Shown here piece after piece: positions 46,325 to 64,000 of a stretch of DNA of 64,000 nt. Under the pieces are notes generated by a model. The model saw only the letters and a list, made by a program, of their open reading frames with translations. It did no database searches and had not been told where the DNA came from. The translations under genes were made by a program, and so were the position numbers. Positions within the stretch are counted from its first letter, which is position 1, and each line of letters opens with the position of its first letter. Source of the DNA: an uncultured Bacillota bacterium (GTDB taxonomy: Bacteria; Sysuimicrobiota; Sysuimicrobiia; Sysuimicrobiales; Segetimicrobiaceae); assembly GCA_963804645.1 (NCBI GenBank), contig CAWDRG010000009.1, forward strand, positions 192,001-256,000, written 5' to 3'.

Positions 46325-46343
46325 TCCCGGCGGCGCCGGCCGC

Positions 46344-47426
46344 TCAGACGCGCGGCCAGAGGACCAGCGCGTTCGGCACCTGCCGTCCCGGGCCGATCAG
46401 GTAGCGTCCTCCGCACACCAGGCCGGTCGATCCGTTGTCGTCGAGGTTCATCGCGTCCGCCGCGCCGAGCACCTGCATGACCGACGCCGCCTGCGTGATC
46501 GTAGCGCCGCCGATCACGGCCAGCATCACATCGCCGGCGGCCGTCGTCCCCACCACCGATCGCGTGCCGCTCCACGACACGATCTTCGGATCGCGAAACC
46601 CCTCGGCGGCGGCGTGGACGCTGACCTGTCCGTCGCGGACCAGCGTGGGACCGGCGCCGAGGCTGAAGCGGGTGTTGAGCACGCGCCCGTCCTCGATGGC
46701 GGCGTACGCGATGCGCTGCCCCGGACGAAACTTCCACCCCAACACGGCGACCTCCCGGCCCTGCAGCGCGAGGACGAACCCATCGGAGGGAATCGCCACG
46801 TCCGCGTCTGCGACGACATCACTGACGATCCCCCGGCGCGCCACGATCGCGAGGTCGGCCCGAAACCCCAGCGTCGGCCCGCGTTCCGGCGTGAAGACGT
46901 ACGCGCTGCTGCCGCCGGGCGTCGGCGTCTGGTTGAGGTTGTAGGCGTACCAGTCGGACGGATACGCGTCGCTGCCGTCGAGCTCCCCCTGAATCTGCAG
47001 GTGGTCGGGTACGATCCGCACCGTTCCGTCGTCGAGCACGTCGAGGCGCGATCCCAGGCCGCCGAGATGCAGCAGCTTCTTGTCGATCACGAGCGTGCCG
47101 TAGGGTTCGTGCGTCTCCCCCGCATACGCGGCGAAGAACGTGCCGTTGATCGCGCACTGCGCGCCGGCCCCGCGGGCGATCTCCACGAGCGGCGCGTTGT
47201 CGCCGACGCGGCGGCCGGCGAGCGCGACCCCCAGCTGATAGCGGGACAGCGGGACGCGGACGAGCGTCACGGGAAACCGGTCTCCGCCCACCGCGACCAC
47301 GAGCCGCTCCGGCGCCGCGCCGGCGCTGCTCGACGCGATGAGACACGCGGCCAGCACGAACGCGACCAGCCCGCATCCGAGAGTCCACCGCACCCCGGCG
47401 GTGCGCCACCGCGGCTGTCTTCGCAT
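46344..47426 (-). CDS. Secreted phosphodiester glycosidase (NAGPA) family protein
   Basis: Signal peptide; AINGTFF, GAGPTLVRDG, RSVVG, AMNLDDNGS, RQVPNAL. Confidence 0.82.
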   Translation of the reverse strand: MRRQPRWRTAGVRWTLGCGLVAFVLAACLIASSSAGAAPERLVVAVGGDRFPVTLVRVPLSRYQLGVALAGRRVGDNAPLVEIARGAGAQCAINGTFFAAYAGETHEPYGTLVIDKKLLHLGGLGSRLDVLDDGTVRIVPDHLQIQGELDGSDAYPSDWYAYNLNQTPTPGGSSAYVFTPERGPTLGFRADLAIVARRGIVSDVVADADVAIPSDGFVLALQGREVAVLGWKFRPGQRIAYAAIEDGRVLNTRFSLGAGPTLVRDGQVSVHAAAEGFRDPKIVSWSGTRSVVGTTAAGDVMLAVIGGATITQAASVMQVLGAADAMNLDDNGSTGLVCGGRYLIGPGRQVPNALVLWPRV

Positions 47427-47716
47427 CTCTCCCCCTTCCGCGCGCGCGGGCACGCCGCGTGCGGGACCGGTGCCCGACACCCTCTAAGCGACGTCGCGCA
47501 ACCGGCAGTTCCCGGCGCCGCCGGGGCGAGACGAACCGGTCCGACCCGAGCCCCGTGTCGCGGGGGCGCGAGGCGGCATGAAGGACCCGCACCGTCCTCG
47601 CCGAAGGTCGCCTCTGAACACGCCCCATTCCGCCGCGGCGCGGTGCGACGCGGACCAGACGAGGCCTGACGACAACGCCGACACCGCAGCAGATCGCCGA
47701 GGCCGCCCGGGACGCG

Positions 47717-48139
47717 ATGTGGGCGGAGGACAAGGCCAGCCGTGCACTCGGCATGGCCGTCGTCGCCATCGGACCGGGCCGCGCCACGCTCCGGATGACG
47801 GTGCGGGCAGACATGTGCAACGGGCACCACGTCTGCCACGGGGGCATGATCTTCAGCCTCGCCGATTCAGCCTTCGCGTTCGCATGCAACTCCCACAACA
47901 AGATCACGGTCGCGGGCAACTGCGCGGTCACGTTCATCGCGCCGGCCCGCGAGGGCGACCTCCTGATCGCCGAAGCGGAGGAGCGACATCGGGGCGGGCG
48001 GTCCGGCGTCTGCGACGTGACGGTCTCCGACGCGCACGGCAAGCTCATCGCGATCTTCCGCGGCCACTCGATCCAGATCCAGGGAGAGTTGGTGCCGGGT
48101 CTCACCGCCGGCAGCTCCAACCCCGAACCGGGCCGCTAG
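47717..48139 (+). CDS. paaI: PaaI-family hot-dog thioesterase
   Basis: MCNGHHVCHGGMIFSLADSAFAFACNS; start may lie up to about 50 bp upstream. Confidence 0.88.
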   Translation: MWAEDKASRALGMAVVAIGPGRATLRMTVRADMCNGHHVCHGGMIFSLADSAFAFACNSHNKITVAGNCAVTFIAPAREGDLLIAEAEERHRGGRSGVCDVTVSDAHGKLIAIFRGHSIQIQGELVPGLTAGSSNPEPGR

Positions 48140-48190
48140 GGCCCCGGCATATCCGCGCAGCGCATCCTGGAGAGGATGCACGAAGGACAG

Positions 48191-49261
48191 TCAAGAATCG
48201 CCGGCGTCCCGCGGCGGAGCGATGCGCTCGAGGATGAACGCCACGAGCCGGTCGACGTCGGTCCGTCCGCTCACCACGTACACCGAGATCGCCTCAGCGG
48301 CCTTGAGCAGCGCCGCCTGCCTGGCAGCCTGATCCGGCGCCGTGATGTCGTAGACGCCGACGGCCTTCACCACCTGCCCCAACGCCGCGGCGCTTTCGTC
48401 GGGCGACGCCGGCTGCACGCTCCACCCCCGGCCGCTCGGGCTCCATCGAAGCAGGAACAATACGCGCAGGGGGCCGCGCAGACGGACCGTGCCGGCTCCG
48501 TAGATCGCGTCGACGTCGACGTCGTGCTTCCGCTCGAGCGTCCAGAGCTGGTCCGCCGTGAGGGGCGAATAATTCCGCCGCTCGTCCGGAGTCAGCAGGG
48601 CCGTCAGACGGGGGATGTGCAGGAGCGTCCCGGGGTTGACGCGCGGACGCTTCGGCACCCCGACCATCTCCGTGCCGCCGGGGGCCGCCCGGATGAACAA
48701 CCGATCGTTGGTCACCAGGTGCTGGTGGCGGTCCACCAGCATGAGCGCCAGCGTGGACTTCCCGGACCCGGACGACGACGCGAAGGCGATCCCCCCGGTC
48801 TCACCGAGGATGGCGGAGGCGTGCAGCATCACAAAACCGCGCCGCACCATCGCCTTCGCGAATACCATCGCGACCGCGTTGACCGCCTGGTTGAAGTTCG
48901 CGTCCAGGTCGCCCACCACGTAGTGCTCGGGCTCCGCAACGTAGATCACGACGCCGGTCCGCCGCTTCAGGATCACGCGCGCATCGGCCGCATCGTAGAA
49001 CGCCTCCTTGATCCCGGCAGCGCTCGCGCGGCGGGGGATGTCGACGAGGCGCGCCGCATCGTACACCGGCGTGCCCATGAAGAGGGACACGCGGCCCGCC
49101 GGGTCCGGCGGCTCCGCGACGACGTAGGGGGCAAAGTAACTCCGCAGCCGGGTATCGAGGAGGGCCGCATTCGTCTGAACCCGAAGCGCGACGCCCGCGA
49201 TCTCGAGCCCGAACGTGGTCTCAGGTCGAGAGGCTTGGAGAACCGATTCCAGTTCGGTCAT
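48191..49261 (-). CDS. HprK-related kinase B (GAK-type)
   Basis: IKEAFYD, KRRTG, NQAVN, LHAS, SGSGKST, VTNDRLF, GVPKRPRVNPGT, LWTLERKHDV. Confidence 0.85.
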   Translation of the reverse strand: MTELESVLQASRPETTFGLEIAGVALRVQTNAALLDTRLRSYFAPYVVAEPPDPAGRVSLFMGTPVYDAARLVDIPRRASAAGIKEAFYDAADARVILKRRTGVVIYVAEPEHYVVGDLDANFNQAVNAVAMVFAKAMVRRGFVMLHASAILGETGGIAFASSSGSGKSTLALMLVDRHQHLVTNDRLFIRAAPGGTEMVGVPKRPRVNPGTLLHIPRLTALLTPDERRNYSPLTADQLWTLERKHDVDVDAIYGAGTVRLRGPLRVLFLLRWSPSGRGWSVQPASPDESAAALGQVVKAVGVYDITAPDQAARQAALLKAAEAISVYVVSGRTDVDRLVAFILERIAPPRDAGDS

Positions 49262-50151
49262 GAGGGGGCCGTCCCGTCACCACACCGACGACGTGCTCCG
49301 CGTAGAGGCGCGCGGCATCGATGCCTTGAGTGTGCCAGAGTCCGCCGAAGCCGCCAAACGCGCTCACCTCATAGGCCAGGTACCCGTCCGGCCCCTCGAC
49401 AAGGTCGACGCCGGTGAAGGTGAGCCCAAACACGTCCGCGGCCCGCAGGGCCAGCTGCTCGATCTCCGGCGTGACGCGGACACGTCTCATAGTGGCCGCC
49501 CGCCGCGGTCGTGGTCAGCCACGTATCCGGCCGCGCGACGCGGTAGTACGCGCCTAGCACGCGCCCCGCCAGCACCGCCACGCCGATGTCCCACCCGGCG
49601 TGCGGCACGTACTCCTGGACGTAAAACGGCATCTGCCACGCGCGCTGCCACTCGCGGAGCGCCGTCGGGAGCGACGCGTCGGCGGTCAGCACCACCATGC
49701 CTTTCCCCTTCGACGTGAACAGGGGCTTAAGAACCGCGCGGCCCCAGCGCCGCACCGCCCCCGCCGCATCCTCCGCGGTCTCGGCCACGACCGTGCGCGG
49801 GATCGGAATATTCCCCGCGCTCAGCCGCTGCGTCATGCGGTACCGGTCCTGGGCGTCGGCGATCGCCCGGGCGGGGCTGAACACGGACACGCCGCGGATC
49901 TCGAGCTGGCCGAGCAGATGCACCCGGCTCGGCGCCAGCGGATCTGTCGTCGATCCCAGCTTCTTAACGATCACCGCGTCGAGCTGCCCAAGATCGACGC
50001 CGCGGCACCACACGCCGCCGGACGGCAAGTCGATCACGCAGTCGGCGGCGGCGAACACGACGGTCTCGCATCCGCACGTCTCCAGCGCGCCGCGGAGTTG
50101 GTCCGTGGACCGTGCACCCGGGATCCCGCAGACCCCGACGCGCAGGGTCAC
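49221..50151 (-). pseudogene. GAK-type RimK-like ATP-grasp enzyme with a +1 frameshift near 49477 (possibly an assembly error)
   Basis: GIPGARST, IVKKLG, KPLFTSKGKGM, YVQEY, WLTTTAAGGHY, then FTGVDLVE..YEVSAFGGF in another frame; GTGA-coupled to the upstream gene. Confidence 0.85.
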
Positions 50152-51776
50152 GGCTGCGCCGCCTGCCGCAGCAGCCGCACGCCGCGCCGGAGCAGCGCGG
50201 CGGCGTGCACCGCTTCGATGACCACCCGCACCGAGGTGATGCACGACCGAGCGAGGCTGAGGGCGAGCCGCGGCTCAAACGCCGCGTCGGCGCGCTCCGT
50301 GGCGAACTCCCGCGCAAACTCCTCGACCATTTGGTTGACGCGGGCGATGTCGTCGCGAAGCGTCGCCGACAGGTCCGGGCGACGGACCATCGACAGCAGA
50401 AACACGCTGACGTCCTGCAGGTAGTCGCCCAGGCGCGAGCGGTGCACGTCGATGAACTTCACCTGTCCGGTGCGGTCGTTGTACAGCACGTTGTTGGCGT
50501 TAAAGTCGCCGTGCAGCCAGACCGAGCACGGCGGCGCGAGCGACGGCTCCAACGTTTCCGCGTGCGCGAGCAGGTCGTCGAGCCGCACCACGGCGCCGTC
50601 CACGGAGGTGCCGGCTTCCGCCTCGGCCCGCAGCTCCGGGTGCAGCGCGAACACCTCCGGAAGGCGGCGCCGGATCTGCGCCACGTAGTCGACGGCGGGC
50701 GGCGTGGGCACGAGCGTGATCTGCCATACCTGCCGGACCGCGTCCAGCACCCGCTGCGTCGCCGCGAGCTTCGCGTCTCGCGAGGCATCCGAGAGGTACA
50801 GCTCGGAAAGCAGCGTGCTGTCAACGAACTCGCGCAGCAGCGCCTGCCGGTCCTTGACCGTGACCGAGCCGAGGACGCGCGGTGTGAGATCCCCGGGGAT
50901 GCGCTCCCACACCTTGAGCTTCTCGGTCTCCTCTTGAATCTTGCGCCGCGACCCCTCTTTGTACAGCACGGTGCCGTGCCGACCGGCGACGCGCGCCACG
51001 ACGGCGCCGCTGATCCCGTCCCAATACGGGCGAAACTCCAGCCCGCCCCCGGCGGCCTCCGGCATGAGCAGCCCGAGCTGCTGGTACTGCGAAAACTTGA
51101 GCCGCCGGCCGGTCATCAGGAAGATCGCCTGCTCTCCTACGTTGAGCACATAGTCCGCGACTTTCTCGAGGTATTTCATCACCGCGAGGGTGTGGAGGAG
51201 GTACGGCACCTCGGCCGGCGATGCCTGCATCTGCCGGCGCGCCTCGGTGAGGCACGCGACGTAGTGCGTGTCGAACTCCGACTCCCGCAGGCAGGCCCGC
51301 CGGGCCTGCTCCAGATCCCGCCGGACGACCGCGTCGATCACCTCCGAGACCGCCGTCAGCGCACAGGTCTCGAGCGGCTCGAACGTGAAGTTCCCCGGGG
51401 CGATCCCCTCGCGCACGAGCAGCCGCACGCGCTTCGCGATGTGGGTGCCGGCGTCGCCGATCCGCTCGAGATTCAGCGCGATCTTCACGGTGGCCCGCAC
51501 GGTGCGGAGCCCGTCCTCGGACAGGCCCCCGGTCGCGGCAAGCGCGAAGCACCGCTCCTCGAGCTCGAGGTTGAGGTTGTCGACGGCGTCGTCCCGTTCG
51601 ATGATCTCTTCGGCGAGGGTCAGGTCGCGGGTGTGGTAGCAGCGCAGCGCTCGCTCGAGCTGGTCGACGACAAGCCGACCGAGCTTCGTCACTTCACTTT
51701 GCAGCCCGCTGAGCAGCGTGTCGCTGGCCAAGGATGGCGTTCCCGATTCGACGTCCGCCGGGATCGCGCGGCGCAT
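50148..51776 (-). CDS. PhoU-domain plus aminoglycoside-phosphotransferase-like kinase fusion
   Basis: Two PhoU repeats (ERDDAVD...LERIGD; EFD...LEKVADYVLNVGE), then GISG, KEG, WLHGDFNANN, FIDVHRS. Confidence 0.88.
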   Translation of the reverse strand: MRRAIPADVESGTPSLASDTLLSGLQSEVTKLGRLVVDQLERALRCYHTRDLTLAEEIIERDDAVDNLNLELEERCFALAATGGLSEDGLRTVRATVKIALNLERIGDAGTHIAKRVRLLVREGIAPGNFTFEPLETCALTAVSEVIDAVVRRDLEQARRACLRESEFDTHYVACLTEARRQMQASPAEVPYLLHTLAVMKYLEKVADYVLNVGEQAIFLMTGRRLKFSQYQQLGLLMPEAAGGGLEFRPYWDGISGAVVARVAGRHGTVLYKEGSRRKIQEETEKLKVWERIPGDLTPRVLGSVTVKDRQALLREFVDSTLLSELYLSDASRDAKLAATQRVLDAVRQVWQITLVPTPPAVDYVAQIRRRLPEVFALHPELRAEAEAGTSVDGAVVRLDDLLAHAETLEPSLAPPCSVWLHGDFNANNVLYNDRTGQVKFIDVHRSRLGDYLQDVSVFLLSMVRRPDLSATLRDDIARVNQMVEEFAREFATERADAAFEPRLALSLARSCITSVRVVIEAVHAAALLRRGVRLLRQAAQP

Positions 51777-51818
51777 TCCGCGACCCCGGCGGCGGTAGGA
51801 GGATTGGAAAAAGTAGGC

Positions 51819-52139
51819 TTAGTCTCGCGTGCCCGCCCGCACGTGACGATCTTCCATTTCGCGCGGATCGACGGTGATCTCCAACGTCTCCGCCGCCGCC
51901 GCGTACTCGGGTGTCCATGACAGCTCCACCGCGAGGTGTCCCGCCGCCTTGTCCCTCTTCCCCTCGGCCTGGATCTCCACCGCCAACATCGCGGTCGGCG
52001 TCAGCTGGAGCGTCTCGCCGCCGGCCGACAGCCTGACGACGCCGCGGCGCAGCCCGTCCGCGATACGCACAAGACACTCGGCCGCCTGCGTCGCTTCGAG
52101 CGTGGCCGAGAACGCGAACTTGCGGGTGCGCTTACCCAT
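51819..52139 (-). CDS. amphi-Trp domain protein
   Basis: A..L..IADGL..G.V.L..G...L.L.P....VEI.A.......L.VELSW pattern. Confidence 0.85.
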   Translation of the reverse strand: MGKRTRKFAFSATLEATQAAECLVRIADGLRRGVVRLSAGGETLQLTPTAMLAVEIQAEGKRDKAAGHLAVELSWTPEYAAAAETLEITVDPREMEDRHVRAGTRD

Positions 52140-52178
52140 CGTCAAGCCTCCTTGGCTGTGCGAGCGGCGCGGCCGCCG

Positions 52179-52445
52179 TCAGGGCACGGTCGTCACGCTC
52201 AGCGGCAGACGCCAGCGCAGGTCGATCTGCATCGACCCTTCTTCGCTGCCTTCCTTCGCGCGGATCTCCAGTTGGATCACCTGACCGATGTGGTAGGCGT
52301 ACCGCCGGCCGCTCGACCGGATGACCAGCGTCCCGTGCATCAGGCCGAGCGAGAGCTGGTTCATCAACTCGGCCGCGTCGGTGTTCGGCAGCGACGTGGC
52401 CACCTTCAGCGGTTCTTGTACGCGCTCGCGAATCTTCGAGCTCAC
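52179..52445 (-). CDS. Second, divergent amphi-Trp-like protein
   Basis: AAELMNQLSLGLMHGTLVI...IQLEIRAKE....SMQIDLRW; GTGA-coupled to the PHP gene. Confidence 0.7.
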   Translation of the reverse strand: MSSKIRERVQEPLKVATSLPNTDAAELMNQLSLGLMHGTLVIRSSGRRYAYHIGQVIQLEIRAKEGSEEGSMQIDLRWRLPLSVTTVP

Positions 52446-53254
52446 TGCGCACGCCCCGCCATTTCGGACACCGGTACCTCCGTGACCGGGAGATCGCGAT
52501 AGGCGGCGCGGGCCGCTCTCGCCTTGGCGATGCGCTTGTACGCCCCGCTGATCTGCACCGCGATCGGTCCGTAACTCTGGCTCTCGACCGCGGCGCGGCC
52601 CGTACGGATCTCCGAAGCCACTGAAGTCTGCGTGAGCTCGTCGACCGCCAGCACCGTCGCCTTGATGCCGACCTGCGCCCAGAAATGGGCGTCGCTTCCA
52701 CCCACGACGGGCACGCGCAGCTTCGCGGCCACCGTCCGCACCCGATCGTCCGACACAAAATCCTTGCCGTTCAGTTCCAGCGCGTCGAGCGCGCCGAGCT
52801 TGTCTTTGCCCACCTTCGCCAGCTCCTTGCCGGGCCGGACCATGTGCGCGCCGATCACGAACGCCCCGACCGCGTGGGCCACCGCGACCGCCTCGGCAAA
52901 CGGAGGCCGGTACCCGTGCGTGGCAGGCTTCGTCAGCGCCCCGTCCAGTTCCCGTAACTGGCCGACGGTCGCCAACACGATCAGGTCGCATCCCTGTGCG
53001 ATGCTCAGCTCCGCGCCCGACAGAAGCCGGAATCCATCCAGCCCCTCGTACGCCCCCGCCGCCTCACTGTATCGAAACTCGCGCCCCAAGCAGTCGTGGA
53101 TTTCCCAATACTGCACCGCGTGCATATGCTCGACGAGTGCCAACCCGTCCAGCCCGAGGCGCCGCGCTTGGGCAACGAACTGGTGTACCGTTCTGATTGC
53201 GAAGGGGAACGTCTTCGAGAGCTTAGCGTGGGTGTGCAGGTCGATGCGCTTCAC
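52442..53254 (-). CDS. PHP-family metal-dependent phosphoesterase
   Basis: DLHTH, EH, GAE, AH, GGSDAH; GAGGAG RBS with GTG start. Confidence 0.88.
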   Translation of the reverse strand: MKRIDLHTHAKLSKTFPFAIRTVHQFVAQARRLGLDGLALVEHMHAVQYWEIHDCLGREFRYSEAAGAYEGLDGFRLLSGAELSIAQGCDLIVLATVGQLRELDGALTKPATHGYRPPFAEAVAVAHAVGAFVIGAHMVRPGKELAKVGKDKLGALDALELNGKDFVSDDRVRTVAAKLRVPVVGGSDAHFWAQVGIKATVLAVDELTQTSVASEIRTGRAAVESQSYGPIAVQISGAYKRIAKARAARAAYRDLPVTEVPVSEMAGRAQ

Positions 53255-53383
53255 GGCCTCGTCTCCTCGATGTCGGCTGCGAATATGCGGCAACTGTTGG
53301 CAGACCCGGACGGGTTTCCAACCCGCCAGGGCCGTTCAAGTGTTCGCCACGAACGTACCAGCCCACCTTCATCTCTCAATAAC

Positions 53384-53460
53384 ACTCTAGGCGCTGGTAC
53401 TTAAACAAAAGTGAAGACTTTCGTAATGGGAGGCAAAGATAACGTTAATACACGGTTAAG
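53384..53460 (-). promoter_or_regulatory. Putative Pho-box array (6 x 11 bp) plus -10 element for the PHP-GAK operon
   Basis: Coding strand CTTAAC, ATTAAC, CTTTGC, ATTACG, CTTCAC, TTTAAG at exact 11-bp period, then TAGAGT (53389-53384). Confidence 0.72.
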
Positions 53461-53647
53461 GGCATTCCGAAGAAGAACCTTCCGCGGCGGGTCTCGGGGA
53501 CCCCGGGCGTCCACAAGTCATCCGGGGATGCCGATCGCGGCGACCCCGGATGACTCGTGCCGGGAAGCGGGGCTCCGAGCGGAGGCGCGTCCTTACAGCG
53601 ACGCCGATCTTGCCGCCGACCGCTGGGATTCCGCTGGCGATCTCCCC

Positions 53648-54884
53648 CTATTTCTTCGCGAGCAGCGTATCGATCTGCTGTGCCATCGCATCCGCCGCCT
53701 GCTGGGGCGACAGCTCACCGACCAGAATCTTCTGCCCGTTCGTGATGATCACGGTCTGGATGCCGGCCCAGTCTCCGACGGTCGGCAGTGCTCTTCGCGT
53801 CCTTCAGCGCCTGACCGAAGATGGCGTACTCCGGGTTGTTCCACGGCGGCGCCTTGTACACGGACAACCGGGCCGGGGTGCGGTTCATGATCTTCCCCAT
53901 GTTCTCCGGCCTGGCGAGCCACTGGAGAAACACGCGAGCCGCGGCCACGTTCTGCGCGCCGACCGGCACGCCCATCGCCCAGCCTCCGGAGACGTTGACC
54001 TTGTCGGGGGAGAGCACCATCCCCCACCTGAGGTCCTTGTGCTGCGAGAACTCGTCGAACGCGGTCGACGTGCTCGTGAGCATCCCGACCTTGTTCGCCT
54101 CAAACAGGGGGATGACGTCCCGGGTCGTCGTGAAGTTCGGGGTGCCGTCCGGCACGACGTGGTACTTCGTGTAGAGGTCTGACCAGAACGTCAGGCCCGC
54201 GACGCTCTTTGGGGAGTTGATCGTCGCTTTGGTGCCGTCCGCACTGAGGAAATCCCCGCCGTTCGCCCAGATCATCGCGGCGAGGAGGCCCATGACGTTG
54301 GACGGGTCGCTCAGGTCCGCGGCGATCCCGATCCCGAACTGCCCCGGAATCGTCAGCTTGCGCGCGATCTGCAGCATCTCGGGGTACGTCCAGTTGTCGG
54401 TGGGATACGGCACCCCCGCCTTGTCGAAGACGGTCTTGTTGTAGTAGAAGACGTAGGACGCCGCCCGGTTCGGGATCGCGTACTGGTGACCGTTGTAGCG
54501 GCTGGAGGCCCACACCCCCGGGGAGTAGTCCTTGACGTCCAGCGTCTTCGCGACGTCGTCGAGCGGCTGCAGGAGGCCCTTGGCGGAGACCGTCGACGCC
54601 CACGAGACGTCGAGGTCGATCACGTCCGGCGGGGTGCCGCCGAGCGCGGACGCGCTGAACTTGTCGAGGTATCCGTTGATCGGCAGCGGTTCGATCTTGA
54701 GCGTGATCCCCGGATAATCTTTCGCCCACAGCTGCATGGCGATCGGGACCTGCGTGTCCCACCAGCTCCCGACCCACACGGTCACCGTCCCGCCCGCCGT
54801 GGCGGCGAACGTCGACACGTTCATGGTGAGCACTCCCACCAGCGCGAGCAGCAGGGCAATACGACGCAGCGGTGCGGTGCGCAT
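53648..54884 (-). pseudogene. Carbohydrate-type ABC substrate-binding protein (family 1), frameshift near 53792, orphan
   Basis: Signal peptide, PPDV, YNKTVFDKAGV.YP..W; C-terminus ALPTVGDWAGIQ...SPQQAADAMAQQIDTLLAKK lies in another frame. Confidence 0.82.
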
Positions 54885-55257
54885 ACGCGGTCTCCTCTCG
54901 AATCAGCGCCGGACGGTCGCCGCGCGGACGGCGTGCCTCCGCGTCGCGGCGTGCGGCAGCGGTCCAGTGTTGTTCGAGTTCCGGGGTCCCGTGTCCTATC
55001 GACGCGCGCAGACGCCCCGCGCACCCCGTCGGCGTCCCGCATCGCCGAAGGGCCCGGCCCCGCCACACGCGAAATGGCCTACGGCCAGCGCGCCGCCGCC
55101 GCGCGGGCCCTGGGCACCCGGGTTCGTGCGCAGGCCGGACTCAGCGGACGACTCTTGCGCCACGGAGGGAATGGATGACAGTAGTGCAGACGCCGCGCGA
55201 CCCCGGGAGGTCCCCGTGACTCCCAGCCCCGTGTCGGGATGCGACACCGCCGTAAAC

Positions 55258-56112
55258 ATGAGCTTCGTGCAGCTCGGGGCGTTCAAGATCGTGGTGCTCG
55301 GGATCGTGCAGGGCATCACGGAGCTGCTGCCGATCAGCAGCACCGCCCATCTCCGCATCATCCCGGCGCTGCTCCACTGGCCCGATCCGGGCGCCGCGTT
55401 TTCCGCCGCGATGCAGCTCGCGAGCCTCGCGGCGGTCGTCGCGTTCTTCGAGCGGGACATCGTCATGATCACGCGGCAGTCGCTGACGGCCCTGCGCACC
55501 GGCGACACCCGCGACCACTCGTTCCGGATGGCCGTGGGGTTCGTGCTCGCGACGATCCCGATCGGCATCGCAGGGCTGGCGCTGCGCCGCGTGCTCAACG
55601 CGTGCGACTCGCCGCTGCGCAGCATCGCCGTGATCGGGTGGGCCTGCATCGTGATGGGCGCGCTGCTCGCCCTCGCCGAGATCTACGGGCAGCACGGACG
55701 CGGGGGCAAGCGCCGCTGGGACGAGCTCACGATTCGGGACTGCCTGTACGTGGGCGTCGCGCAGGCGTTTTCGCTGGTGCCCGGCGTGTCCCGGTCCGGG
55801 TCGACGCTGACTGCCGCGCTGGGGCTCGACATCGAGCGCGCCACGGCCGCCCGGTTCTCATTCCTGCTCGGCGTGCCGGCGATCGTGCTGGCCGGGCTGT
55901 TCGAGCTGTGGATCCTCCATAAGGCCGGTCTGACCGCCCACGGATGGGAGCTGCTCGCGATCGGCCTCATCGCCGGGAGCGCCGCGTCGTACCTGGCGAT
56001 CCGGTGGCTGCTGCGCTACCTCGAGCACCACACCGCGTGGGTCTTCGCATGGTACCGGGTCGCGCTCGGGGTGGTGCTCCTGCTGGGCGCCGGCGCCGGG
56101 TGGTTGCGGTAG
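55258..56112 (+). CDS. uppP: Undecaprenyl-diphosphate phosphatase
   Basis: GIVQGITELLPISSTAH, PGVSRSGST, AARFSFLL. Confidence 0.93.
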   Translation: MSFVQLGAFKIVVLGIVQGITELLPISSTAHLRIIPALLHWPDPGAAFSAAMQLASLAAVVAFFERDIVMITRQSLTALRTGDTRDHSFRMAVGFVLATIPIGIAGLALRRVLNACDSPLRSIAVIGWACIVMGALLALAEIYGQHGRGGKRRWDELTIRDCLYVGVAQAFSLVPGVSRSGSTLTAALGLDIERATAARFSFLLGVPAIVLAGLFELWILHKAGLTAHGWELLAIGLIAGSAASYLAIRWLLRYLEHHTAWVFAWYRVALGVVLLLGAGAGWLR

Positions 56113-56279
56113 CCTCGGGAGATCCCGCTGAGTCGTGAGCGCGCGCTGCTCCGCGCGCATCATCCGAACAGCCGCGCGAGGCACACGCGCAGAAGCATGC
56201 GAGTCCGGGGAACGCCGCGGGGCCGGACGGGACAGTATCCGTGCGGGCGAGGTGCGCGGCCCGACGTGCCGGACCGTGC

Positions 56280-56939
56280 CTAGACGTTCAGTTCCTTGAG
56301 CGTGCCGGTCACCATGTAGATGACGCGCTCGGCGATGTTGGTCGCGTGGTCGCCCATGCGCTCCACCGCCTGCGCCGCCATCAACAGATGAGTCGCGCGC
56401 TCAATGCTCCTGGGATCCTCGATCATGTAGGTCAGCAACTCGCGGAACACCTGGCTGTAGAGGTGATCGACGTCGTCGTCCCGGGCCGCCATCCGCGCGG
56501 CCAGCCCAACGTCGTGGCGCACAAACGCATCGAGGCCGTCCCGCAGCATCTCGCGGACGATCTCTGACATCCGCGGGATGTCAATCAGCGGCTTGAGCAG
56601 CGGCTCAGAGGCGATGCGCAGCACCATGCGGGCGATGTCCTCGGAGTGGTCCGCGATGCGCTCCAGGTCGATCGTCATCGCCCAGATCGAGGCGATCGTC
56701 CGGAGGTCCTTCGCCATCGGCTGCTGGGTCGCCATCAGGCGCACGCACCGTTCCTCGAGCTCGAGGTGCAGGGCGTCGATGACGTTGTCGGAGGCGACGA
56801 TCTCTTGGGCGAGCACCGTGCTGCGCGCCCGCAGCGCGTCGATCGACCGGCGCACCGAGTCCTCGACCAGGGTGCCCATGCGCAGGAGGTCGTCGCTGAG
56901 CTGCCGCAGATCCTGATCAAACGACTCACGCGTCGGCAT
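56280..56939 (-). CDS. phoU: Phosphate signalling protein PhoU
   Basis: QQPMAKDLR, DLERIADH, LKPLIDIP, DDDVD, ERMGDHATNIAE. Confidence 0.95.
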   Translation of the reverse strand: MPTRESFDQDLRQLSDDLLRMGTLVEDSVRRSIDALRARSTVLAQEIVASDNVIDALHLELEERCVRLMATQQPMAKDLRTIASIWAMTIDLERIADHSEDIARMVLRIASEPLLKPLIDIPRMSEIVREMLRDGLDAFVRHDVGLAARMAARDDDVDHLYSQVFRELLTYMIEDPRSIERATHLLMAAQAVERMGDHATNIAERVIYMVTGTLKELNV

Positions 56940-57025
56940 ATTAGCCCTCTGTTTTTCGCGCACGGCGCAACAGATCCTGCCCTTGGGCCGCGGAGGACCC
57001 AGACCGCGGGGGCCAGTCGGACCGA

Positions 57026-57856
57026 TCAGCCAAACCGGCCGGTGATGTAGTCCTCGGTGCGCTTGTCCTGCGGACGCGTGAACATCTCGGACGTCGGGCC
57101 CGATTCGACCAACTCGCCCGAGAGCATGAACGCGGTGGTGTCGGAGACACGGGCCGCCTGCTGCATGTTGTGCGTGACGATCACGACCGTCAGGGTTTCC
57201 CGCAGCGTCTTCGCCAGTTCCTCGATCTTCAGCGTCGAGATCGGGTCGAGGGCGGACGCCGGTTCGTCCATCAGCAGAACCTCCGGCTCCACCGCGAGCG
57301 CCCGTGCGATGCACAGCCGCTGCTGCTGCCCGCCGGACAGGCTGGTGCCCGCCTTCCCGAGCGAGTCCTTGACCTCGTTCCACAACGCGGCGCCGATCAG
57401 GCTGCGCTCGACGACCTCGTCGAGCCGCCGGCGGTCGCGAACGCCGGACAGCCGCAGGCCCGACACCACGTTGCCGTAGATCGACATCGTCGGGAACGGG
57501 TTGGGGCGCTGGAACACCATGCCGATCCGGCGCCGCACCGCCACGGGGTCGACGTTCGGCGCGTAAATGTCCTCGCTGTCCAGCATCACCTTGCCGTCGA
57601 CCCGAGCGCCCGGCACGACCTCGTGCATCCGGTTGAGACAGCGAAGAAAGGTGGACTTGCCGCACCCCGACGGGCCGATGATCGCCGTGATCCGGTTCGT
57701 CAGGATGCCGATCGACAGCGCCTTCACGGCGTGGTTCTTGCCGAAGTGGGCGTTTAGGCTCTCGATCTTGAGGCGTATCGTGGAGGTCCCGCCGGCTTCC
57801 GCCGAGGGCGCATACGCCGGAAGGACGCGACTCATGCTTGCTGATTCTACACCCAT
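57026..57856 (-). CDS. pstB: Phosphate ABC transporter ATP-binding protein
   Basis: [43 protein letters not shown]. Confidence 0.96.
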
Positions 57857-57862
57857 CGACCC

Positions 57863-58732
57863 TTACCTCCCCTTAGAGAATCGCTTGTGCGTGGCGACGC
57901 GTGCCGAGACGTTGAGCACGAGTGTCAGCGTCATCAAAAGTAGCGCGGCTCCCCACGCCTGGCGGTGCCAATCGCTATATGGCGCGATCGCATAGTTATA
58001 CAGCTGCACGGTCAGTGAGGCCATCGGCTGATCCAAACGCAGAGACCAGAACTGGTTGTTGAACGCTGTGAACAGGAGCGGCGCCGTCTCGCCTCCGATG
58101 CGGGCAACGGCGAGCATGACGCCTGTGATGACGCCGGCCATCGCACTGGGCAGGGTCACGCGCAGCGTGGTGACCCACCACGGGATGCCGAGCGCGAGCG
58201 AAGCTTCACGCAGTGACTGGGGAACGAGCCGCACCATCTCCTCCGTCGTTCGCATCACGATTGGAATCATCATCAGCCCGAGCGCGATCCCGCCGGCGTA
58301 GCCTGAGAAATGGTGCGTCGGTATGACGATCAGCGTGTACACGAACACGCCGATCACGATGCTCGGGACGCCGTTCAGGACATCCGCGGTAAACCGGATC
58401 CACCACCCGAGCTTGCCGTGGCCCGCGAGCTCGGAGAGAAACAGACCCCCCAGGATCCCAACCGGGATCCCGACACAGGAGCCGAGCACCATCAGGATCA
58501 GGGTGCCGACAAGCGCGTTCGCCATGCCCCCACCGAGCTCACCGGTCGGAGCGGGCGTCTGCGTGAAGAACGCCCAGTTGAGGGAGGTCGCACCCTGCAG
58601 GATGACGTATCCGAGGACGCTCGCCAGGGGTGCGATCGCGATGAGCACCGCGACAAAGCAGAGCGACGTCATCACGACGTCGACGATCCGACGTCGCCGA
58701 ATTTCCGCTGTCGGGAGCGCGATGGTGCTCAT
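57863..58732 (-). CDS. pstA: Phosphate ABC transporter permease PstA
   Basis: GVPSIVIG, LREASLALG, ARIGGETAPLL. Confidence 0.95.
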   Translation of the reverse strand: MSTIALPTAEIRRRRIVDVVMTSLCFVAVLIAIAPLASVLGYVILQGATSLNWAFFTQTPAPTGELGGGMANALVGTLILMVLGSCVGIPVGILGGLFLSELAGHGKLGWWIRFTADVLNGVPSIVIGVFVYTLIVIPTHHFSGYAGGIALGLMMIPIVMRTTEEMVRLVPQSLREASLALGIPWWVTTLRVTLPSAMAGVITGVMLAVARIGGETAPLLFTAFNNQFWSLRLDQPMASLTVQLYNYAIAPYSDWHRQAWGAALLLMTLTLVLNVSARVATHKRFSKGR

Positions 58733-59721
58733 ATCAACCCCACCGGCCGTGCGACATGGGACACGAGCCAGCGCGCGGCCGCGTTCACGATGAGCGACAC
58801 GATGAACAACACCAGGGCCATCTCGATGAGCGAGGACAGGTAGAGATCGGTCGTCGCCTCGGAGAATTCGTTTGCGAGGGCGGCGGCGATTGTGTAGGCG
58901 GGCTGGAACAGGGACGCCGAGATCTGCGGCCGGTTGCCGATCACCATCGTCACGGCCATCGTCTCACCGAACGCGCGCCCGAGGCCGAGGATGATCGCCC
59001 CGATGATCCCGGTCCGTCCGAACGGCAGCACGGCGCGCCGGATCACTTCCCACCGTGTCGCACCGAGCGCGTACATCGCTTCGCGCTGGTCTTGCGGCAC
59101 GGCCCGCAACACGTCGCGCGACACCGACGAAATGATCGGGATCACCATGATCGCCAAGATGATGCCTGCGGCGAGCATGCCGATCCCATATGGCGGCCCG
59201 CTGAACAGCGGCGACCACCCGAACGCGGTTGAGAGCGCCGGCTCGACCGCAAACCGCACCCACGGTGCGAGCACGAAAATGCCCCACAGCCCTAGGATCA
59301 CGCTCGGGACCGCAGCCAAGAGTTCAACCACGAACGACAAGATCACCGACGTACCGGAGATCGAGAGTTCTGCCAGGTAGATGGCCACGCCGAGGCTGAT
59401 CGGGACGCCAATGATCAGCGCGATCGTCGACGAAACGATCGTGCCGTACACGAACGGTAGCGCCCCGAAGATACCATGGACCGGATCCCAGCGCGATGTC
59501 CACAAGAACGCGGGCCCGAACTTCTGAATCGCGATTTGAGAGGCAAGAACGAGATTCAGCGCGATCGCCGCCACGAACACAATGACGACGAGGCCGAACG
59601 CTGTGAGGACCCCCCGAAATAGGCCATCCGCCCAGCGGGCCCTGCCCCGGCGGTCGGCGCTCGCCCGGGGCGGCCCGCCGGTCTGACCCGCCTCCTGCTG
59701 GCGCACCGCTTGATCACCCAC
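58729..59721 (-). CDS. pstC: Phosphate ABC transporter permease PstC
   Basis: WDP, ELLAAVPSV, ALGATRWE, GRAFGETMAV. Confidence 0.95.
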   Translation of the reverse strand: MGDQAVRQQEAGQTGGPPRASADRRGRARWADGLFRGVLTAFGLVVIVFVAAIALNLVLASQIAIQKFGPAFLWTSRWDPVHGIFGALPFVYGTIVSSTIALIIGVPISLGVAIYLAELSISGTSVILSFVVELLAAVPSVILGLWGIFVLAPWVRFAVEPALSTAFGWSPLFSGPPYGIGMLAAGIILAIMVIPIISSVSRDVLRAVPQDQREAMYALGATRWEVIRRAVLPFGRTGIIGAIILGLGRAFGETMAVTMVIGNRPQISASLFQPAYTIAAALANEFSEATTDLYLSSLIEMALVLFIVSLIVNAAARWLVSHVARPVGLI

Positions 59722-59781
59722 TATCTGACCACTCCCTCGAACGGGGCGCAGCTACCGGGTGGCGCCCTCCCCGCTCATACC

Positions 59782-59847
59782 ACGATACCGGTCGGCGGCG
59801 AATCGCAGGTGACTGAAGTGTTATGCGATTATTAACGCCCCGTTAAA
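59782..59847 (-). promoter_or_regulatory. Putative Pho-box array (5 x 11 bp) plus -10 element for pstCAB-phoU
   Basis: Coding strand TTTAAC, GTTAAT, CATAAC, AGTCAC, ATTCGC at 11-bp period, then TATCGT (59787-59782). Confidence 0.72.
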
Positions 59848-59890
59848 GCAACTCCGAACGGCTCATTTCACCGCTCGTGGAGTATCGTGC

Positions 59891-60034
59891 TCAGATGCCG
59901 ACAAGCCGCACGAAAAGAAACGCCGCCACGACGACGCAGCCCAGCCACAGCGCCACGATCGCCGCAATCCGAAGGTCAACCGGCCAATCTTCCGGCTGTA
60001 AAAACGTCGGATCGTGATCGTCGTCGTCCTGCAT
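59891..60034 (-). CDS. Putative 47-aa single-TM small protein
   Basis: GGGAGGG RBS; MQDDDDHDPTFLQPEDWPVDLRIAAIVALWLGCVVVAAFLFVRLVGI. Confidence 0.55.
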   Translation of the reverse strand: MQDDDDHDPTFLQPEDWPVDLRIAAIVALWLGCVVVAAFLFVRLVGI

Positions 60035-60166
60035 CGGCGCCCTCCCAGCAGCGGCACCCGCGTACCCCGATCCGGCGGTGGGACGAGTCTATGCATCCGC
60101 AGTTAATCTTGATCGTCGCGCACCGGCAAGAATATGTTAAGAGACGCGCAAGAATTGCGCATGCCG

Positions 60167-61561
60167 TCATACCGAGGACCGAACCGGGGTTCGCGGGATC
60201 AGCAGGGTAAACTGGCTCCCGCGCCCCTCGGTGCTCTGCACCTCGACCCGTCCTCCGTGCGACGTCACGATGTGTTTCACGATGCTCAGACCGAGCCCGG
60301 TGCCCCCGAGCAACCGGGACCGGGACGGGTCGACCCGATAGAACCGTTCGAAGATTCGGGGCAGATGCTCAGGCGCGATGCCCAAACCGGTGTCGGCCAC
60401 GGTCACCGCCACGAGATCGCCCTCGACGCGGGCGGAGAGGCGCACCACGCCACCCGCCGGCGTGTACTTGAGCGCGTTGTCGACCAGGTTGACGAACGCC
60501 TGCACGAGCCGCGCCTCGTCGCCCCAGACGTCCGGGAGATCGTCGAGCGCGTCGATGCGCAGCTCGACCTGGCGCTGCTCGGCCACGGGCCGGAATTTCG
60601 TGGTCACGTCGCGCGCGACGACCCCGAGCGCGACCGGCGTCATCTCCATCTTGGCGCTCCCGGACTCGATCGCCGACAGATCGAGAAGATCGTTCACCAG
60701 CAGCGTCAGCCGGTCGATCTCGGAGACGATGCGGCCCAGAAAGCGCGGCCCGGCGTCCCGATCGCGCAGCGCGCCGTCGAGCAGGGTCTCCGCGAGGGCC
60801 CGGAGCGAGGCGAGCGGCGTGCGGAGCTCATGGGACACGTTCGCGATGAACTCCTGGCGGATCAGGTCGGTGCGGCGCAGATCCGTGATGTCCTGGACGG
60901 CAACCACCGTGCCCGCAAACTCTCCATGCCCGCCCCAGACCGGGTTCGCCTGGACCCTGAGCGCCCTCCGCTGCGGCTGATGCACCTCGAGCTCCCGGGC
61001 CAGCGGGACGCGCTCGCGATCGGCCTGGCGAACCAGCGTGTCCAGCTCGAAATGATGCACGACCTCGATCAGTCGGCGCCCCATCGCGAACTGTGCTTCG
61101 ACACCGAAGATGCGCTCGGCGGCGGGATTGACCAGCACCAGCGTCCCGGCGGCATCGAGGATCAGCAGCCCGTCGCTCATGTGTGCCATCACCGCTTCAA
61201 GCGTGCCCTTCCCGCGATCGAGGTCCCCGATCGTCCGGCCGGACTGCGCGACCATCGCGTTGAACGCGGCGATCGTCTCACGCACCTCGACGAACGACTC
61301 CTCGCGGACGGGCCGCAGCCTCCCGTCTGCACTGGCGGCGGCGGCGGCCGCGATCTCGCGAAGCGGGCGGCGGAGCCCCGAGGCAGCGCGCGCGCTGAGC
61401 ACGTACGCGAAGGCGGCCGCGATTACGATCGTCCCGGCCGCCCACAGGGCCATGTTCCGCCCCACCGGCCAGCCGAGCACGATCAGCAAGGTCCCGGCGG
61501 CGACCACGGTAATCCCGATCTCAAGCGCAAGCAGGCGCGCGAGGCCGGGCCGGAGCCGCAT
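60167..61561 (-). CDS. phoR: PhoR-like sensor histidine kinase (TM, HAMP-like, PAS, HisKA, HATPase)
   Basis: FIANVSHELRTPL, NLVDNALKYT, DTGLGI, FERFYRVD.SRS...GGTGLGL; pst context. Confidence 0.9.
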   Translation of the reverse strand: MRLRPGLARLLALEIGITVVAAGTLLIVLGWPVGRNMALWAAGTIVIAAAFAYVLSARAASGLRRPLREIAAAAAASADGRLRPVREESFVEVRETIAAFNAMVAQSGRTIGDLDRGKGTLEAVMAHMSDGLLILDAAGTLVLVNPAAERIFGVEAQFAMGRRLIEVVHHFELDTLVRQADRERVPLARELEVHQPQRRALRVQANPVWGGHGEFAGTVVAVQDITDLRRTDLIRQEFIANVSHELRTPLASLRALAETLLDGALRDRDAGPRFLGRIVSEIDRLTLLVNDLLDLSAIESGSAKMEMTPVALGVVARDVTTKFRPVAEQRQVELRIDALDDLPDVWGDEARLVQAFVNLVDNALKYTPAGGVVRLSARVEGDLVAVTVADTGLGIAPEHLPRIFERFYRVDPSRSRLLGGTGLGLSIVKHIVTSHGGRVEVQSTEGRGSQFTLLIPRTPVRSSV

Positions 61562-61563
61562 GC

Positions 61564-62244
61564 TCAGCCCTCGAGCTTGTAACCGACGCCGCGGATGGTC
61601 TCGATGGACGTCCGGCCGCCCGCCTCCTGCAGCTTGTGGCGGAGCCAGCGCACGTGGACGTCGACCGTACGGTCGTCACCGTCGTACTCGTAGCCCCACA
61701 CCTGCTGCAGGAGCAGCGCCCGCGTCAATACGCGGCCGGGGTTGGACAGAAACGCCCGGAGGAGATCGAACTGCCTCGGGGGCAGCACGACCATCTGGTC
61801 CCCGACCCGGACGATATGCCTCGCGACGTCCAGCGTGATCTCCGCGACCTGCAGCACCTCGTCCCGCGACGGTGAGGCGGCCTGCGCCCGGCGAAGGGCG
61901 GCACGCACCCGGGCGAGCACCTCGCGCACGCTGAACGGCTTGACGATGTAGTCGTCGGCCCCGAGGTCGAGGCCAACCACGCGGTCCGGCTCGTCCGCGC
62001 GTGCGGTGATCATCAGAATCGGCACCGTCGACTCATTCCGCAGCACACGGCAGACCTCGAAGCCGCTCATACCCGGCAGCATCACGTCGAGCAGCACGAC
62101 GTCAGGCTTCTTCGTCTTGGCGAGATCCAGAGCTTCCCCGCCGTCGGAGGCCTCCAGGACCTCGTAGCCCTCCTTTTCAAGCGCGTAGCGCAGGGATTCG
62201 ACGATCGCATGCTCGTCGTCCACGAGCAGGATCCGAGGTTTCAC
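61564..62244 (-). CDS. phoP: PhoP/PhoB-like OmpR-family response regulator
   Basis: LVDDE, LDVMLP, GADDYIVKPF, RTVDVHVRWLR, TIRGVGY; directly upstream of phoR. Confidence 0.88.
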   Translation of the reverse strand: MKPRILLVDDEHAIVESLRYALEKEGYEVLEASDGGEALDLAKTKKPDVVLLDVMLPGMSGFEVCRVLRNESTVPILMITARADEPDRVVGLDLGADDYIVKPFSVREVLARVRAALRRAQAASPSRDEVLQVAEITLDVARHIVRVGDQMVVLPPRQFDLLRAFLSNPGRVLTRALLLQQVWGYEYDGDDRTVDVHVRWLRHKLQEAGGRTSIETIRGVGYKLEG

Positions 62245-62320
62245 ACTCACCTCCGGGCCCCCCGGCGCGCTTGGCGCGTCTGAGAGGTTTTTCCGATCTT
62301 TCGGCCCTTGCACGGTCGCG

Positions 62321-62337
62321 GTTAATGCCGGGTTAAT
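62321..62337 (-). promoter_or_regulatory. Putative Pho box (2 x ATTAAC, 11-bp period) upstream of phoPR
   Basis: GTTAAT at 62321 and 62332 on the + strand. Confidence 0.65.
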
Positions 62338-62667
62338 CCGCATCGGTTATGCTCCTCCTTGGATGGCGGTCCGCCGGGGTACGACCGGCGGCGTCACGGA
62401 GGGTGCGTGGACACCACGCTCCGCCTCAGACGGACGAACAGGCGATGGCCGGCGGGACCTCCCAAGGACCCGAAGCGATCCGCCGGTACAAGATTCGCCG
62501 GACTCGTTCCCAAGGACGGAGCGCCACGCGCCACCTCGTTCGCCTGGATCGCCGCCATCCCCCAATATGTGCACTCGGAGCCGCGCGGAGCAGGAAGCGC
62601 GCCTGCGGCTCCGACGTTTCTGCCCGCTGCCCATCACACGTGGCCCCCGCGCGCCGGTGCGCGGGCG

Positions 62668-62853
62668 ATGCGCCGGCGGCCGCCGGCGGGACGCGGCGCC
62701 ACTCGATCCGCGACGCCTGCCGGGTCTCCCGCGCGAGCGATCCGGGCCGTTCTGGAGCGAATCGACGACGATCGCGAGCTCACGGCGCTCAAAATCGGCC
62801 TCCTCGGCCTGTTGGTCCTCGCGGCCGCAGCGCTGGAATATCTGTGGACATGA
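62668..62853 (+). CDS. Putative small membrane protein
   Basis: C-terminal TM LKIGLLGLLVLAAAALEYLWT; ATGA overlap with the next gene; start uncertain. Confidence 0.5.
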   Translation: MRRRPPAGRGATRSATPAGSPARAIRAVLERIDDDRELTALKIGLLGLLVLAAAALEYLWT

Positions 62854-63302: not shown

Positions 63303-63428
63303 GCCGGACCGCGCGCACGCCCCGCCCAATTCTGGGATGGGGCTAGGTCTTTCGGCGTCATTTCGCTCGATGATCATCCCCCCGCGCACCGCGTCACATG
63401 ATCGCCGGACCCGGGGTCAGACGCGCCT

Positions 63429-63464
63429 CCGCCGGGCGAAGGAACTGTACACCTCGCCCGGCGG
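63429..63464 (-). terminator. Stem-loop after pstS
   Basis: CCGCCGGGCGA / TCGCCCGGCGG stem about 30 bp downstream of the pstS stop. Confidence 0.6.
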
Positions 63465-63492
63465 GACGCATCTGCATCGTAACACTAACCAA

Positions 63493-64000
63493 TTACGGCA
63501 TCAGCGACTTGCCCTGATAGGTCACCTGCTTGATGATCCCCGCGTCGATCGAGAGAACCGGCGCGGGAAGCGGCGCGTAGAGCAGGAGCGGCGCGTCGTT
63601 CTGCCCATCGTGAGTCGCCCACGACAAAAACTGCACGAGCGCCTGACCCTTCGCCTGATCGGTCTGCTCTTGCGGGATCAACAGGTAGGTGAATCCGCAG
63701 ATCGGGTACGCTGTGGCGGCCGGCGAGTTCGAGATCGCCACCCGCACGTCCTTCGTCTGCACCATCTGGGTGGCGCCTCCTGCCGCGGCCGAGACCGTTG
63801 CGCTCAGCGACGGCGCGACCCAATGGCCGGCCGGGTTCTGCACCAGCGCGTACGAGAGGTGGTTCTGCATGACATACGCCAGCTCGACGTAGCCGATTGC
63901 ACCCGGCGTCTGCTGCACTGCTCCCGCGACGCCTTCGTTCCCCTTCCCGCCGATCCCGACCGGCCACTCGACGGAGGTGCCGGCACCGACCTTGGACTTC
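63493..64000 (-). CDS. pstS: Phosphate-binding protein PstS, C-terminal part
   Basis: WPVGIGGKGNEGVAG, GAIGYVELAY, YPICGFTYLL, YAPLP. Confidence 0.95.
   Translation of the reverse strand, partial: KSKVGAGTSVEWPVGIGGKGNEGVAGAVQQTPGAIGYVELAYVMQNHLSYALVQNPAGHWVAPSLSATVSAAAGGATQMVQTKDVRVAISNSPAATAYPICGFTYLLIPQEQTDQAKGQALVQFLSWATHDGQNDAPLLLYAPLPAPVLSIDAGIIKQVTYQGKSLMP

Follow-up and report, generated by a model that had tools for sequence, protein, structure and literature searches.

A putative Pho box of six tandem repeats ahead of the GAK operon in an uncultured bacterium of the Segetimicrobiaceae

The GAK operon of the bacterium analyzed here is preceded by an array of hexamers which matches the repeats in front of phosphate-uptake genes, and the operon is therefore likely induced by phosphate starvation. 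The array is probably a conserved operator of the Pho-box type that stands in for the -35 element at the GAK promoter. It would be bound by the phosphorylated form of a PhoP/PhoB-like regulator whose gene lies 8 kb away, and this would activate the operon at low phosphate. Judged from the sequences compared, it is very likely that the GAK operon is a member of the Pho regulon. The window (the whole stretch of 64,000 nucleotides that was analyzed) corresponds to G000:C9:192001-256000 in G000, a genome of 5.3 Mb with 69% G+C. All four features of a Pho box that can be checked in a sequence were found, namely 11-bp repeats, a distance of 10 bp to a TAN3T hexamer without a -35 element, occurrence in common with pstS and phosphate-scavenging genes, and conservation at orthologous promoters.

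Structure and conservation of the GAK promoter

The array (53400..53460, minus strand) consists of six hexamers with an exact period of 11 bp, which can be read directly in the sequence and had been reported in a preliminary description of this DNA. On the minus strand the units are, from distal to proximal, CTTAAC, ATTAAC, CTTTGC, ATTACG, CTTCAC and TTTAAG, with plus-strand starts at 53455, 53444, 53433, 53422, 53411 and 53400; three of the six are degenerate in spelling. The -10 hexamer TAGAGT (53384..53389, minus strand) follows 10 nt past the proximal unit. The preliminary description had placed it at an offset of 11 nt, identical to that at pstC; the common layout was recovered, but the true spacer is 10 nt, since the figure of 11 includes the first base of the -10. 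No -35/-10 pair with a TTGACA-like element was found in 53200-53800, and the transcript is predicted to start near 53377. The array is located 140 nt ahead of a six-gene operon on the minus strand, in a region with 59% A+T in contrast to the 69% G+C of the genome.

Between the gene of a sugar-binding protein upstream and the array, a strong G+C-rich hairpin was predicted by RNAfold (53516..53555). It was not called as a terminator because a T run is lacking, and it is a possible end of the upstream transcript. The leader contains the motif GCCGCAYA-TCGCAGC (53276..53291, minus strand), just 5' of the ribosome site of the first gene (PHP) and about 30 nt before its start, which is kept in all seven species of the genus and partly in G010 and G015. 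Rfam gave no match within 47000-64000.

The PHP gene was detected in 10 of the 23 family genomes, and all ten carry a Pho-type array at the PHP/GAK promoter. The seven species of the genus have six units in register, the 10-nt gap and a -10 of the form TA[GC]A[GA]T, while G010 and G015 (genus g5) and G007 (genus g2) have four or five units in an unchanged layout. Among the seven species, the hexamers have a mean pairwise identity of 0.82 and the -10 one of 0.90, whereas the linkers reach 0.57, the 10-nt spacer 0.49 and the flanks 0.31-0.32. Counted from the proximal end, units 6, 5 and 1 are always of the TTAA type, with unit 6 being CATAAC in three species; unit 4 is CTTTGC in 6/7.

An A+T-rich region (59%) in which half of the units are degenerate might also be a repressor site, or an intrinsically bent element upstream of a promoter that is constitutively active; passages of PMC4415409 describe PhoP proteins as able to repress. 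However, conservation is concentrated in the hexamers, and a -35 is lacking. Moreover, the units end 10 nt before the -10, which leaves the -10 and the start uncovered, and the same layout is found at pstS, a classic activated target. We therefore regard a repressor site or a bent element as very improbable, the least probable of the explanations considered.

Genes of the GAK operon

The first gene of the operon encodes a PHP-type phosphoesterase (52442..53245; PF13263, with NF038032 below cut-off). It is followed by the genes of two amphi-Trp proteins, the first of which does not reach the TIGR04354 cut-off of 31 (52179..52445; 26.6 bits) while the second exceeds it (51819..52145; 48.7 bits). 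Then follow a fusion of a PhoU domain with an APH-like phosphotransferase (50148..51776; TIGR02135, PF01895 twice and PF01636), the GAK ATP-grasp enzyme (49221..50151) and HprK-related kinase B (48191..49261; TIGR04355, 226 bits, over cut-off), all on the minus strand. ATP-grasp enzyme, amphi-Trp protein and HprK-related kinase B, by which a GAK system is recognized, are thus present in one cluster. The ATP-grasp gene matches TIGR04356 at positions 1-221 and 223-284 in different frames, each part being below cut-off, with a break near 49480. It is unbroken in 6/6 related loci and shows a 1-base gap against a 97%-identical copy; the frame break is probably an assembly indel.

In the alphaproteobacterial GAK copies the PhoU/APH-like phosphotransferase precedes the ATP-grasp gene, as it does here. 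The alphaproteobacterial clusters H1 and H2 have a CofD-like gene, whereas the loci of the genus are led by the PHP gene; these loci, L113-L121, yielded neither a CofD-like gene (tblastn) nor a histidine-phosphatase or metallophosphoesterase gene of the kind seen in the Alphaproteobacteria. HprK/P reverses its own reaction with inorganic phosphate. The gene content suggests that GAK may be a phosphate-sensing protein-modification relay, built from a PhoU-fused kinase, an HprK-like kinase, a RimK-like ligase, a phosphoesterase and two small amphi-Trp proteins, the latter being candidate substrates. In two peat metatranscriptome runs of one study, short contigs nearly identical to 52833-53030 (PHP) and 52081-52246 (amphi-Trp) were found, with 2 differences each; as contigs without strand, start or level they were not counted as support.

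Promoters of the neighbouring phosphate genes

The genes pstCAB-phoU, phoR-like, phoB-like and pstS are located on one side of the GAK operon and ppx-ppk1 on the other. On this other flank, ppx-ppk1 (plus strand) is accompanied by a phosphodiester glycosidase gene (PF09992, minus strand), together covering 43057-47480.

The genes pstC-pstA-pstB-phoU (56280..59721, minus strand; NCBIfam models over cut-offs) are preceded by a promoter at 59782..59847 (minus strand). It consists of TTTAAC, GTTAAT, CATAAC, AGTCAC and ATTCGC (59842-59798), 10 nt and TATCGT (59787-59782), so that the geometry previously said to be shared with the GAK promoter is indeed present, with five units, 10 bases and the -10. 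The array was found in 6/6 genus genomes with pstC data. An ORF of 50 codons (59887-60039, minus strand), acidic and then hydrophobic (membrane), lies before pstC in six genus genomes, and a similar ORF is located ahead of PHP in G007. A site at 60102 ahead of this ORF (ATTAAC, 10 nt, TAGACT) reached only 10.8 bits and no claim is made for it.

The 3' part of pstS is located at 63493..64000 (minus strand), and its promoter falls shortly beyond the edge of the window, near position 64660 if the numbering is continued. It reads GCTAAC, AATCAC, GTTAAT, 10 nt and TACGGT. To the right of the window, an 890-bp IS remnant (G000:C9:256710-257599), presumably IS4-like and bounded by inverted ends of 39 bp, lies inside this array next to a target duplication of 11 bp, leaving the three units and TACGGT, while the form in G004 is undisturbed. 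Further copies of the remnant are present on C11, C13 and C19 of G000. In the family as a whole, chains of units were found upstream of pstS in 19 of the 20 regions counted. Four pstS promoters of genus g5 contain one 12-bp step, and in G016 and G020 of genus g2 the -10 is shifted by one; these promoters are therefore misplaced by a rigid anchor, and they stayed in the set used for training the unit matrix described below.

A perfect pair of ATTAAC units 11 bp apart had been described upstream of phoP. The pair is present (62321 and 62332), but the promoter to which it belongs points away from phoP; the former strand assignment is explained by TTAA being palindromic. The promoter (62321..62353, plus strand) reads GTTAAT-N5-GTTAAT-N10-TATGCT, with the -10 at 62348, scores 24.4 bits and is located ahead of the ORFs 62411-62853 and 62849-63277. 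In 8/14 phoP loci the pair is followed 10 nt on by a TA...T -10 on the strand opposite to phoP, and in none of these eight does a TA...T -10 occur at +10 of the pair on the phoP strand. Autoregulation of phoP via this pair was therefore rejected as the main reading. Separate arrays that do face phoP were observed in G001, in G003 and, at a distance of 1-1.3 kb upstream, in G002 and G006. Neither of the two ORFs showed a family match; the second looks RNase-H-like. The transcript leader (62355-62600, plus strand) contains blocks of DNA that are conserved across 8 genomes from two genera although the reading frames differ, and is therefore possibly an RNA element.

Genome-wide distribution of Pho-type sites

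The genome scan used two matrices, one for the units (70 units) and one for the -10 (13 sites), both trained on 19 regions upstream of pstS from 18 further genomes. Neither G000 nor G004, the closest relative, was among these genomes, and every GAK and pstC promoter was likewise left out, while the seed core and the geometry of the model were taken from the finding under test. When both strands were scanned, 14 sites in G000 reached at least 20 bits and 6 at least 24 bits, and the GAK array ranked fourth with 31.1 bits. The strongest site precedes a PF04185 phosphoesterase gene (34.2 bits). The second-best (33.8 bits; G000:C9:531308, plus strand) is located ahead of a gene for a 70-aa CxxC...CxxC protein and a trypsin-like gene. 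Further sites were found ahead of pstC (31.3 bits), a second phosphoesterase (27.3 bits) and a ugpBAE-like operon (20.9 bits), in addition to the promoter pointing away from phoP. Among the upstream regions of 2519 G000 genes with free upstream DNA, as predicted by a simple gene finder, the top five belong to a phosphoesterase, pstC, GAK, a phosphoesterase and a ugpB-like gene, all of which are phosphate-related. The matrix scan that had been proposed to recover pstS did so at rank 13 of 2519 (17.7 bits), despite the IS remnant.

With a period of 11, six sites reach at least 24 bits, in comparison to 0-1 for each of the periods 9, 10, 12 and 13. At the same threshold, a gap of 10 gives 6 sites and all other gaps 0-4, with 2 for a gap of 11 and 4 for a gap of 12; the scan is only moderately specific for the gap, and the -10 distance is less sharply fixed than the 11-bp period. 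Period 9 still yields 13 sites of at least 20 bits, one of them at least 32, and specificity is therefore confined to the upper score tail.

Base composition does not account for the GAK score. In dinucleotide shuffles of the whole GAK intergenic region 0/2000 reached 31.1 bits, and in shuffles of its AT-rich 105-nt core 0/5000 did so, the best one scoring 28.2. Only one of the 88 AT-rich upstream regions of G000 reaches at least 20 bits, and this is GAK. The motif is thus not a general property of AT-rich DNA, a result by which the preliminary description would have been refuted. Two of the three PF04185 genes of G000 have a site and the third phosphoesterase scores 4.7 bits; in relatives, 6/6 homologues carry sites of the same geometry with 21.5-26.2 bits. 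No Pho-type site was found in G000 upstream of ppx-ppk (5.0 bits) or uppP (4.2 bits).

Candidate regulators

The PhoP/PhoB-like response regulator of the window (61564-62244, minus strand) consists of a receiver and a winged helix with the recognition helix RTVDVHVRWLR. Its best family match is TIGR02154, with 251 bits against a cut-off of 296, and every other PhoB model is likewise below cut-off. The gene of a phoR-like kinase lies alongside (60167-61561, minus strand; best matches NF046044 and TIGR02966, below cut-off) and pst-phoU adjoins, which is the context expected of a phoP orthologue. The closest solved structure is RegX3. Where this regulator has R-W in the recognition helix, PhoB of E. 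coli has R-R. Orthologues with at least 74% identity are present in 13 of the 22 other family genomes and in 14 of the 94 phylum genomes, in this family alone, and regulators about 50-55% identical to PhoP were found across the phylum.

G000 encodes nine OmpR-type DNA-binding domains. A tryptophan is present in the recognition helix of two of them, the regulator of the window and the fusion protein described below. The 11-bp tandem mode of binding is common to the OmpR family, and boxes of the WalR type are also 11-bp direct repeats. Another member, e.g., that of the conserved pair C1:8199-8867 (helix RTVDMHISRLR), might therefore bind the repeats, with an indirect link to phosphate. Against this stand the sites at pstS, pstC, phosphoesterases and ugp-like genes, and the fact that regulators about 50-55% identical to PhoP also occur in families which have no TTAAC units at pstS (0/34, see below). 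We consider such a regulator very improbable.

A second candidate reader is a protein of 314 aa in which DUF47 is fused to a winged helix (G000:C17:240279-241223; L219:6280-7224). It contains PF01865 and PF00486, lacks a receiver and has the helix RTLDTHIAWLR. The fusion is found in 49 of the 94 phylum genomes, in many of which its gene immediately precedes pstS, and the associated pstS arrays have the 11-bp period and the same 10-nt gap. Downstream of the fusion gene in G000 lies a weaker array, followed by a methylglyoxal-synthase gene (mgsA). The array could be a genuine phosphate operator that is read mainly or only by this protein, which is likely a one-component phosphate regulator, with PhoP in a secondary role. 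This would agree with the presence of fusion-type units (CTTCAC, CTTTGC) in the GAK array, and with the helix THIAWLRKK of the family's fusion version, which is shared with genus g2. There, 10/15 strong units of the pstS arrays are TTAAC, although PhoP was not found in 7/7 genomes. In G001 (L220:10109-10560) the DNA-binding domain of PhoP and phoR have been lost by a deletion of about 1.8 kb, and perfect arrays at pstS, pstC and GAK are nevertheless kept.

The distribution of the two proteins speaks against the fusion protein as the main reader. Genera g3-g6 have PhoP and the fusion in 0/9 genomes, genus g2 has the fusion in 6/7 and PhoP in 0/7, and the genus of the window has both. The nine g3-g6 genomes nevertheless carry TTAAC arrays at pstS, and two of them, G010 and G015, also at GAK; we counted these two, with GAK array and PhoP but without the fusion protein, in favour of PhoP. 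Strong units with A at position 4 make up 30/30 at pstS of the 9 PhoP-only genomes and 0/34 in 13 fusion-to-pstS gaps of families f2 and f5, a contrast between two related groups, each one lineage, so that the cases are not independent. These 13 were counted out of 30 fusion loci, the rest belonging to this family, being a duplicate or lying away from pstS. On a score for the PhoP spelling, the GAK arrays of the genus reach +19.6 to +24.0 bits, with +24.0 in G000, whereas the fusion's own neighbouring array in G000 (CTTCAC/CTTGAG/CCTCAC) has -6.4 bits. Elsewhere, the GAK array scores 13.2 in G015, 2.2 in G010 and -2.1 in the fusion-only G007. Finally, the loss in G001 looks recent, as its copy retains 85% DNA identity to the intact one of G003. 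We therefore hold it for unlikely that the fusion protein is the main or only reader.

PhoP is favoured as reader in G000 because the spelling of the units tracks the regulator between families. Genus g2 and G001 break this rule. Taken together, PhoP appears to be the likelier main reader, and a share for the fusion protein is possible. The preliminary claim that these sites define the Pho box of the lineage holds for this family, in which the core is TTAAC, but not for other families of the phylum, which spell TT[CG]AC. It is conceivable, though we regard it as doubtful, that the phylum has one layout with two interchangeable readers, a kinase-free DUF47-winged-helix protein (TT[CG]AC) and PhoR-PhoP (TTAAC), both of them present in this genus. 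With its TTAAC ends and its conserved middle units of the fusion type, the GAK array of six units would then integrate outside phosphate via PhoR and cytoplasmic phosphate via DUF47, and thereby time an undescribed protein-modification system of phosphate starvation.

Comparison with known Pho boxes

The SphR box of Synechocystis PCC 6803 and other cyanobacteria is described in passages of PMC1906773 as at least three tandem CTTAACCT units with 3-bp linkers and an 11-bp period, located at pst and phosphatase genes. Units such as CTTTACTA, CATAAGTT and GTTAATCC from the same passages resemble the degenerate GAK units, and CTTAAC, ATTAAC and GTTAAC dominate the sites of the family studied here. 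Unlike the SphR box, the GAK array belongs to a different, uncultured phylum, has six units with less conserved octamer positions 7-8, faces a second candidate reader and has the GAK operon as target.

The PhoB box of E. coli consists of 11-nt direct repeats, separated by 10 bp from the TAN3T -10 that follows them, and its targets include pst and ugp, as stated in parts of PMC4415409 and PMC1906773. Its core is CTGTCAT, compared to xTTAAC here, in the alignment of the 7-mer and 6-mer registers that we infer. For Streptomyces, a high-GC organism, passages of PMC4415409 give the PHO box of PhoP as GTTCACC, in operators that can be complex and differ in their number of 11-nt units. Units of this kind (CTTCAC/GTTCAC) also occur here and dominate beside the fusion protein in other families, whereas the PhoP-associated sites of the window's family are mostly TTAAC. 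According to the same passages, 11-nt units with species-specific cores are general (PMC4415409). As far as its letters can tell, the GAK array is by its spelling (CTTAAC) an SphR-type Pho box, and its spacing is that of E. coli.

GAK and phosphate genes in other bacteria

A metagenome scan gave 80 GAK loci, 34 of which are at least 7 kb long; 26 of these have an HprK-B of at most 50% identity and form 18 clusters. In these distant clusters pst or ppk genes are present in 13/18, and either those or phoB/phoR-like genes in 16/18, a count which left out stand-alone phoU matches. One further distant locus holds phoU. Clear TTAAC arrays with the 10-nt gap were found at two of 12 distant GAK promoters (54.9 and 39.2 bits; 0/100 shuffles each), one of the two having four perfect GTTAACACTCT repeats before TATAAT. 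The other ten do not beat all of their shuffles under the pstS-trained model. These ten, probably one clade, show another 11-bp-periodic spelling (GCAAC, GTAA[CT]), with TA...T 11 nt further in 8/10, a pattern that was picked by eye and without a null; similar units were seen by eye in the phoB-pstS gaps of the same loci. In a distant clade (L136-L182), GAK, phoB, pstSCAB and phoU lie in a row, the GCAAC/GTAA[CT] spelling occurs at GAK and pstS promoters alike, and the helix of the regulator is RTVDVHVARLR. Three alphaproteobacterial plasmid GAK clusters have no pst neighbours, and GTCAT half-sites were seen by eye in them.

Our literature search, which was thin on subscription journals, found no link between GAK and phosphate control and no description of the fusion. 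In the literature searched, the GAK cluster appears by its family names and in little beyond a table mention. No GAK-type gene is named in the portions consulted of the articles on fitness of D. alaskensis (PMC5193443) and on PhoB targets of D. vulgaris (PMC3333781), whose supplements list targets by locus tag. The operator itself is of a known kind; its interest lies in the likely assignment of the GAK operon to phosphate control.

Proposed mechanism and implications

Following the model of PhoB, the signal of low phosphate would pass from PstSCAB-PhoU to PhoR. Phosphorylated PhoP would then bind the array head-to-tail, with one winged-helix domain per 11 bp and up to three dimers, and the proximal pair of units would take over the role of a -35 element by recruiting sigma region 4. 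More tentatively, the perfect distal pair may nucleate binding and the degenerate middle units may raise the threshold of PhoP~P, which could make GAK a later or deeper response to starvation than pst.

The split between the PhoP and fusion spellings offers a simple and directly testable case of recognition-helix specificity. For the uncultured phylum, which is likely Sysuimicrobiota/CSP1-3 as judged by its one-order structure, by source labels and by PMC11604079, the sites would represent a first Pho box and a first Pho regulon, comprising pstS, pstCAB-phoU, GAK, two phosphoesterases, a ugp-like operon and two small unknown operons. For GAK itself, a conserved Pho box would provide an inducing condition and thereby a route to its phenotype and substrates.
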